DNA of 64,000 nt from a virus, in IMG/VR virus record IMGVR_UViG_3300033429_000002, positions 6,072-70,071 of that record. One strand, 5' to 3'. Below the pieces are notes generated by a model. That model worked only from the letters and a program-made list of their open reading frames with translations, searched no databases and was not told the DNA's origin. How positions within the stretch are numbered: position 1 is the first letter of the stretch; each line of letters opens with the position of its first letter. Below, one piece after another: positions 20,916 to 21,084 of this stretch. The translations under genes and the position numbers were made by a program.

Positions 20916-21084
20916 GAGAGCGGTGTGCTATTACGCCAAAGGAGCAAAGACAGTCCACACGCCGTTTTCACTACTTGTTTTGTGTGCCGTTCTAGCTGTT
21001 CTTATGTCAAGCTACCCAGTTTATTTAAGGTTACCCACTCCACTCTTTAAAAGGTGGCTGCCTCTAAGCCAACTTCCCGCTCTC
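20916..21084 (-). ncRNA. 23S rRNA GTPase-associated centre (H43/H44, L11-binding) mimic RNA with structured insertion
   Basis: GGAAGTTGGCTTAGAGGCAGCCACCTTTTAAAGA ... GCGTAATAGCACAC, closed by GAGAGCGG/CCGCTCTC; matches the E. coli 23S 1055-1104 sequence as I recall it, with a compensatory 1058-1080 pair swap. Confidence 0.8.

Follow-up and report, generated by a model that had tools for sequence, protein, structure and literature searches.

A phage-borne RNA element resembling the GTPase-associated centre of 23S ribosomal RNA and its predicted family

A 64,000-nt stretch of a viral genome (IMG/VR record IMGVR_UViG_3300033429_000002, positions 6,072 to 70,071; hereafter the window) carries on its minus strand a 169-nt element (20916..21084) that comprises a self-closed copy of the GTPase-associated centre of 23S ribosomal RNA (rRNA) together with an insert. 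The element was delimited from its sequence and from the match of a family model. We conclude with high confidence that it belongs to a phage RNA family which is under selection and keeps the GTPase-associated-centre fold. With a probability of roughly 0.42, and thus tentatively, we read it as the gene for a stable non-coding RNA of this large phage family, the two ends of which would form the fold and which would act in trans by imitating the ribosomal site, most likely through binding of uL11.

Positions within the rRNA-like parts are given in E. coli 23S numbering, which we assume for the element with A1067 as the anchor. On the minus strand, the element opens with the 5′ strand of an 8-bp closing stem (GAGAGCGG, 21077..21084), the last base of which is G1055, and ends with the pairing 3′ strand (CCGCTCTC, 20916..20923), the first base of which is C1104; G1055-C1104 is accordingly the innermost pair, and the stem replaces the tip of helix 42 (H42). 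The next part is an H43-like hairpin (1056-1081) with the A1067 loop, reading UUAGAGGC (21051..21076), which is supported by identity to E. coli, by a local match to the Rfam large-subunit (LSU) rRNA model, and by covariation. It is followed by UUAAA, the junction 1082-1086, and by GAGU, which forms the 5′ strand of H44 (1087-1090; both within 21042..21050); these two were assigned from the sequence and the family. The H43-like stretch ends in AAAGAGU, and 105 inserted nucleotides separate U1090 from G1091, i.e., a 101-nt domain (20941..21041), closed by a helix of 21041-21038 with 20944-20941, and a UUUG linker (20937..20940) that leads from the insert to G1091. The 1090-1091 chain, unbroken in the 58-nt rRNA domain, is thus interrupted here, and the UUUG linker is a family signature that rRNA lacks. 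After the inserted bases, the 3′ part is GCGTAATAGCACAC, and GCGUAAUAGCACAC stands between the 105 inserted bases and the 3′ strand of the closing stem. This portion contains the A1095 hairpin and the 3′ strand of H44 (1091-1103; 20924..20936), reading GCGUAAUAGC and then ACA, with A at position 1101, where rRNA has U. The window element therefore shows all signatures of the family, namely GAGU at 1087-1090, a self-closed insert, the UUUG linker, and A1101. A first-pass annotation made from the sequence alone had described the minus-strand reading of 20916-21084, and this description proved exact.

For the comparison with rRNA we used the 23S gene of E. coli SCU-301 (NZ_CP051751.1, locus L125). 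The element is identical to it at 30/34 positions over 1055-1088 and at 13/14 positions over 1091-1104; these are the same numbers as in the first-pass annotation. The pair 1058-1080, reported there as swapped, is indeed A-U in the element and U-A in E. coli, and the proposed replacement of H42 by an unrelated stem agrees with a closing stem that begins directly at G1055-C1104. The A1067 loop had been called intact, which does not fully hold, since position 1070 is G and not A. The match goes beyond chance: the 15-nt motif of the H43 loop occurs once in the 64-kb window (0.06 occurrences expected from shuffles). The Rfam bacterial LSU model (RF02541) gave a local match over model positions 1097-1144 with 18.5 bits and an E-value of 0.0021 (gathering score 50). 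At gathering thresholds, Rfam detected two transfer RNAs (tRNAs) in the window and nothing else. The window yielded no further rRNA, and the whole 70,071-base virus record, which is ~70% complete according to the CheckV estimate, no LSU rRNA match. Both searches confirm the earlier statement that the element has no other rRNA around it, and the lack of rRNA elsewhere in the record argues against a random scrap of rRNA. Those E. coli 23S copies that match best carry AGCGGG directly before A1057 (36/5426 genomes, with 80% of the query covered); they seem to represent a minority rRNA allele that was retrieved through chance likeness to the phage stem.

The element is one of many. Three pattern scans yielded at least 117-119 loci each. 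In IMG/VR, the 3′ motif was present at no fewer than 118 loci, and in 101 of the 121 motif matches listed it is preceded by the H43 loop motif at a distance of no more than 650 nt; among the matches listed, these 101 collapse to 62 unique elements of 85-403 nt. When IMG/VR was scanned from the H43 side, at least 117 loci were obtained. The 3′ motif follows within 480 nt in 114 of those listed, and the remaining three of the 117 listed are cut by the end of the locus, none of them running on as true rRNA. In 185,579 species genomes, the 3′ motif was found at 28 loci, 19 of them with the H43 motif. As these are only 28 loci, located in metagenome-assembled genomes (MAGs) and isolates of many phyla, the family is a phage trait.

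Cultured phages are among the carriers. A BLAST search of the region against cultured phages revealed an identical H43-like 39-mer in Pseudomonas phage Milchi and Aeromonas phage 4_4572; the elements of both have the same architecture, and a tRNA-Met gene follows in both. Further cultured carriers are Pseudomonas putida phage pf16 (with the element embedded in a tRNA array), Cronobacter phage GAP32, Ralstonia phage RSP15, and ME3. A GAP32-type element of 256 nt was found with 82-100% identity over its full length in 14 jumbo-phage records, some of which are duplicate accessions. Carriers of this version comprise GAP32, XbC2, Kaldavass, CBB, Serratia BF, and six Erwinia pEa_SNUABM phages. None of the cultured carrier records annotates the element, and the GAP32-type region is either blank or filed under ‘hypothetical protein’. 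The jumbo phage PA5oct, for which there are RNA-seq data and four known ncRNAs (PMC7318152), was considered as a link to expression and rejected, as it is absent among the records that match the GAP32-type element.

A covariance model (R1) was built from 18 other members, with the window element and its subtype left out. Applied to the 64-kb window, R1 returned a single match at 20917-21083 on the minus strand (93.1 bits, E-value 7.6e-25) that spans model positions 1-137 of 137. Other members scored 51-92 bits and true 23S copies 46 and 58 bits; as these ranges overlap, the score alone cannot split the most divergent members from rRNA. Some relatives (L026, L050, L078, L112, L036, L051, L061, L064, and L101) have a second insertion inside H43, directly after A1077, either in addition to or in place of the long 1090/1091 insert.

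Selection on the fold was assessed in an alignment (A2) of 41 members of up to 215 nt, in which the rRNA-like structure, the closing stem, and the insert-closing helix were tested. The bounds of the closing stem in A2 were set by script as runs of pairs, the 3′ motif was fixed by the search pattern, and all covariation counts refer to sequences and not to independent events. In total, 96.7% of the cells in A2 are paired, compared with 74.4% after shuffling and 33-51% in slid registers. Double changes were seen in 16/25 pairs, and none of 500 shuffles reached any of the five measures. The closing stem contributes double changes in seven of its eight pairs, and all four pairs of the insert-closing helix covary family-wide. 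Within the rRNA-like part, the pair 1057-1081 is A-U in 33 members and C-G in 8, the pair 1058-1080 is U-A in 22, A-U in 9, G-C in 9, and G-U in 1, and for the pair 1082-1086, U-A (20 members), C-G (12), A-U (6), and other combinations (3) were counted. No variation was seen at the H44 pairs 1087-1102 and 1090-1101, which consequently provide no information. GAGU (1087-1090) is invariant or nearly so in the 41 members, and U1060, G1071, A1088, and the A1084-A1085 pair are invariant; U1060 and A1088 are presumably bases of tertiary contacts.

A non-circular control of the closing stem was based on 92 unique elements found via H43 alone, which were compared with permuted partners. The elements form 7.2 contiguous pairs on average (2.1 with permuted partners), and at least six contiguous pairs were found in 67% of them (3% when permuted), while the sequence of the stem is not conserved. 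Long-range structure is covered by the base triple 1072/1092/1099, which we take to be the known long-range contact of the rRNA domain. C1072 is present in 62/62 members listed with C1092-G1099, as in the window element, and U1072 in 31/32 members listed with U1092-A1099, which were retrieved by a separate pattern scan. Since the triple covaries, the three-dimensional fold is under selection.

Conservation of single positions was inspected in the 73 unique H43-anchored members listed. The four linker positions are U (72 members), U (71), U (68), and G (67), and A1101 is found in 72/73, whereas true 23S (L125 and L282) has U at 1101. At position 1095, A is found in 66 members, G in 5, and C in 2; at 1097, U (37 members) is followed in frequency by C (28), A (7), and G (1), and positions 1093, 1094, and 1098 show no variation. 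In the 41 members of A2, position 1067 is not A in about six (by eye). The exposed bases hence vary more than the fold, which fits recognition of the fold over the factor-contact bases. Altogether, the earlier proposal that selection maintains the fold is borne out by covariation in H43, the 1082-1086 pair, the closing stem, the insert-closing helix, and the base triple. Homologues with a covarying fold exist in large number, and membership of this large family makes the case for selection a firm one.

The insert differs widely between lineages, with a length of 24-334 nt and a median of 131 nt across the family (among the matches listed). The closest relative of the window element, L019, lies on a 50-kb virus record rated 100% complete. 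Start and end of the insert are common to both, and the insert-closing pairs show a compensatory swap (GGAG/CUCC in the window, GAGG/CCUC in L019). The first-pass annotation had the insert closed by GGAGTGG/TTGCTCC: the first four of these pairs are Watson-Crick and the insert does close on itself, but the next three are G-U. Four distinct sequences make up the subtype of this insert, i.e., those of the window, L019, L142 (a contig of a Flavobacteriaceae MAG), and L154 (a metagenome variant). RNAalifold, applied to these four, returned the closing stem, H43, and the A1095 hairpin and, for the insert, a closing helix of 8 bp and a hairpin whose conserved loop is of the UAAAUAA type (21031-21014 in the window, minus strand), with compensatory change in 12/37 pairs. 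Two further candidate hairpins of the insert (21013-20994 and 20986-20956, minus strand) were placed by eye and are tentative. RNAalifold also paired U and G of the linker with A1103 and C1102 in place of 1087-1102 and 1090-1101. This pairing was dropped, as the linker G is A in 6/73 members while C1102 stays C in 72/73.

Searches with a pattern for this subtype yielded four loci in viral contigs, three of them chance matches in coding DNA, and seven loci in metagenome contigs with one new distinct sequence; the inner part of the insert is poorly resolved. Rfam has no family for the insert in the window or in 17 related loci, and inserts of separate lineages do not align with each other. Inserts of other lineages often end in a module of CACCCC, a 3-bp hairpin with a GNRA-like tetraloop, and GGUAAGG (L001, L002, L010, L017, L023, L038, L040, L044, L071, and others), which is without Rfam match and of which the window subtype has at most a degenerate form. 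Portal and terminase of the window phage were not found in the L019 record or in the genome with L142, and the few bases outside the closing stems of the window and L019 elements do not align. Judged from the portal and terminase not found in the L019 record and from the non-aligning flanks, the element seems to travel as a unit among phages that are unrelated.

The genome in the window is myovirus-like and has genes for baseplate, capsid, portal, and terminase. Terminase (24273-26577) and portal (15807-17336) flank an island of ~20 small unknown open reading frames (ORFs), in which the element is located on the coding strand. A 120-aa ORF stops 6 nt before the element, a 33-aa ORF starts 18 nt after it, and the downstream ORF at 20897 is preceded by a Shine-Dalgarno-like AAGGAA motif. 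Given the coding strand and these short distances, the element is probably co-transcribed with its neighbours. None of the flanking protein families recurs among 130 non-redundant loci: the two largest neighbour clusters (14 loci each) are frames through the conserved RNA itself, as judged by eye from their longest members, and the next reaches 6/130. tRNA genes occur within 700 nt in 33/60 family loci (not de-duplicated), always on the same strand, and 27/60 are without them. Ribosomal-protein domains were not detected among the 37 Pfam-scanned or the 108 PHROG-scanned ORFs of the window.

How such an RNA might act can be outlined as follows. The element would be transcribed with the neighbouring ORFs and perhaps, but not necessarily, excised. 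The folded RNA would then act in trans and off the ribosome by imitating the ribosomal site, with free host uL11 as the most likely partner to be captured. Capture could deprive new ribosomes of uL11 or keep uL11 on the phage RNA, and the outcome could be a damping of uL11-dependent signalling, such as RelA activation, or a protein coat for the phage RNA. We consider it probable that the element exerts its effect in trans, by way of a partner of the ribosomal site; trans action is preferred over a leader function because of the lack of a recurrent protein neighbour (130 loci) and the same-strand tRNA genes in 33/60 loci. The identity of this partner as uL11 is a more tentative assignment that may well be wrong; uL11 is favoured because it is the sole ligand known to bind the isolated domain tightly and because the exposed factor-contact bases are less fixed. 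The 58-nt domain folds alone and binds L11 (PMC2719339). In a broader version, which we hold to be slightly on the likely side, the element would be a horizontally exchanged RNA module, carried by phages of many lineages and hosts, that imitates the GTPase-associated centre in three dimensions and, off the ribosome, intercepts either uL11 and thereby the trigger of the stringent response, or an immune or competitor enzyme directed at the ribosome.

Several observations weigh against this proposal. A promoter and terminator scan of 19500-23000 gave 8 and 3 sites, respectively, with 8.8 and 2.7 expected, i.e., chance level, and the public sequencing runs that contain the stretch comprise one DNA run and no RNA run. 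The nearest tRNA genes lie 8.6 kb away (29693-29850), so that the element is not positioned in a tRNA cluster. Unconstrained folding resulted in an energy z-score of only −0.95, and although the closing stem and the H43 hairpin are retained in the minimum-energy fold, the start of the insert forms local pairs there in place of those with its 3′ end, a pairing that is contradicted by the family covariation. As for the base triple, the U/U-A version may mark a single clade. The UUUG linker and the insert sit in H44 and could obstruct the uL11 face, and the second H43 insertion of some relatives follows position 1077, which we assume to be near the binding place of uL11. Finally, a sponge would need a high copy number against tens of thousands of ribosomes.

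Different explanations have to be weighed against an uL11-binding RNA. The main rival, which we nevertheless rate as unlikely, is a decoy or sink: the RNA would offer the H43/H44 surface to a defence effector or a competitor toxin and thereby spare the ribosomes. Phage tRNA clusters are regarded as a replacement for tRNAs that host nucleases attack, and the 33/60 family loci located among phage tRNA genes would fit such a setting. The RNA ligase gene beside that of an RlaP-type nucleotidyltransferase makes the phage seem equipped for RNA damage, and the variation at 1095-1097 could reflect an arms race. Tre23, a bacterial toxin which ADP-ribosylates 23S H44 around 1095-1098 and blocks the EF-G GTPase (PMC8661411), provides an example of an enzyme acting on this site. 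However, the variable positions 1095-1097 are those that Tre23 hits, so a faithful bait is not kept there, and to occupy a catalytic enzyme, a decoy must outcompete a substrate that is present in great abundance. Nothing in the window ties the element to such a system. We know of no phage-defence system aimed at the GTPase-associated centre, and the literature search did not find one either. Somewhat less likely still is a scaffold function, with the ribosomal fold as a stable, nuclease-resistant, and perhaps protein-coated clamp and the lineage-specific insert doing the work. The inserts differ widely among lineages, are kept within them (82-100% identity in the 14 GAP32-type records; the window insert is common to L019 and L142), and are closed by their own covarying helix. 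Against this stands a core that is far more conserved than any insert, and no insert had an Rfam match in 17 loci.

The element could also be a cis element of the surrounding mRNA, i.e., a processing site, a stability element, or a translational operator of the ORF 18 nt downstream in the manner of the rRNA-mimicking leaders of ribosomal proteins, which we regard as improbable. It lies in a co-directional run of small ORFs, promoter and terminator sites of its own are not above chance, an ORF preceded by AAGGAA follows at 20897, and in L019, too, an ORF starts ~20 nt past the element. On the other hand, a close ORF start is unremarkable given the tight gene packing, no neighbour protein family recurs in the 130 non-redundant loci, many copies have tRNA genes instead of ORFs on both sides, and the window is without a ribosomal-protein gene. 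A last explanation, the probability of which is negligible, is a captured, non-functional piece of host 23S that is interrupted by an intron or another intervening sequence, or else a chimera produced by the assembly. A U precedes the insert and a G ends the inserted stretch (linker included), which bears a superficial likeness to group I intron boundaries, and true 23S fragments do exist in some phage records, for example, in Paenibacillus phage Pd_22F (L282). But a group I intron was rejected, as no Rfam intron family matched at an E-value of 10 in 20600-21400 or at 0.01 in the 17 related loci; furthermore, a covarying helix closes the insert, the rRNA likeness ends exactly at the unrelated closing stem, the UUUG linker and A1101 are lacking in true 23S, and more than 100 homologues lie on phage contigs. 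The possibility of a chimera with host rRNA, raised in the first-pass annotation, was checked in the one public DNA run that holds the stretch, a sediment metagenome that is possibly its source. A Logan contig from this run (69,918 nt, depth 35.6) covers 20500-21500 with 0 differences; this second assembly, possibly of the same reads, argues against a chimera, yet does not represent independent data. As far as computation reaches, non-function is excluded. A second contig of the same run (225 nt, depth 3.4) matches 21041-21078 only and has other, A/T-rich flanks, and probably represents a further member of the family from this sample. The Pd_22F locus (MZ092003.1, 83376-84612) is the end of the record and consists of true 23S that continues past the GTPase-associated centre; it was not accepted as a family member and represents host DNA or an assembly artefact.

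Some other features of the window concern RNA or share the accessory island with the element. The only tRNA genes of the window, tRNA-Asp(GTC) and tRNA-Glu(TTC), are arranged head to tail on the minus strand (29693-29850). Domain scans identified an RlaP-type nucleotidyltransferase (45726-46694, minus strand), which is adjoined by an RNA ligase (46778-47878, minus strand), and the latter by a homing-endonuclease-like ORF (47893-48381, minus strand). The RlaP-type enzyme and the RNA ligase possibly form an RNA-repair pair. The accessory island between terminase and portal further contains genes for an R2K-clade ATP-grasp protein (22912-23571, minus strand) and a 64-aa ClpX-type zinc-finger protein (22682-22876, minus strand).

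Regarding novelty, Rfam 15 has no family that covers the element, and the literature search revealed no description of the family, in agreement with the first-pass annotation, which knew of none. If it acts as proposed, we know of no earlier case of a viral non-coding RNA copying a functional rRNA centre. The main texts of two large motif surveys do not mention 23S, L11, or GTPase; an unnamed candidate among the 10,006 of a phage RNA survey could overlap with the family (PMC10690425). If the proposed function is true, the family would constitute a new class of host-takeover or counter-defence RNA and a viral route to disturb translation control or ribosome-directed immunity that is invisible to protein-centred surveys. 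It also offers a natural experiment on the uL11-binding domain, with hundreds of variants, tolerated insertion sites, and covarying tertiary contacts. As several carriers are cultured phages of laboratory hosts, direct tests are feasible.

Compared with known systems, the element is closest to the 23S GTPase-associated centre itself (tip of H42, H43, and H44; E. coli 1051-1108), the 58-nt domain to which uL11 and thiostrepton bind and which contacts the translation GTPases, and with which it shares both hairpin loops, the junction, the H43 pairs, the 1082-1086 pair, and the base triple. In contrast to the 23S centre, it stands alone and has an unrelated 8-bp stem, a 101-nt domain plus UUUG, A1101, and G1070. 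Under the R1 model, true 23S copies score 46-58 bits and the phage element 93 bits, and with a score below the gathering score of RF02541 and no full-length rRNA, the element falls outside that family. The leaders of ribosomal-protein operons (for example, those of L10, L20, S15, and L1) likewise imitate rRNA sites, but they are cellular, loose mimics that act in cis upstream of their own gene. The phage element shares with them the principle of an off-ribosome RNA that copies the rRNA site of a ribosomal protein; it differs as a near-exact copy, carried by phages, with no ribosomal-protein gene nearby and no recurrent neighbour, and Rfam 15 includes no uL11-binding leader of such a shape. GOLLD and ROOL are phage-associated RNAs of 580-800 nt and of unknown function that often lie beside tRNA genes and are probably co-transcribed with them (PMC5737381). 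The family resembles them as a structured phage family that is often near tRNA genes; however, neither was matched in the Rfam scans, and GOLLD and ROOL do not resemble rRNA. Pieces of the translation apparatus are also known from phages in the form of tRNA clusters and ribosomal proteins, and these include the protein partner of the very same RNA site, as cyanophage PhiMa05 encodes ribosomal proteins including uL11 (PMC13157829). Phage-encoded tRNAs and ribosomal proteins are working parts able to join the ribosome, whereas a free-standing rRNA domain is unable to take the place of its counterpart within 23S and must therefore act off the ribosome.

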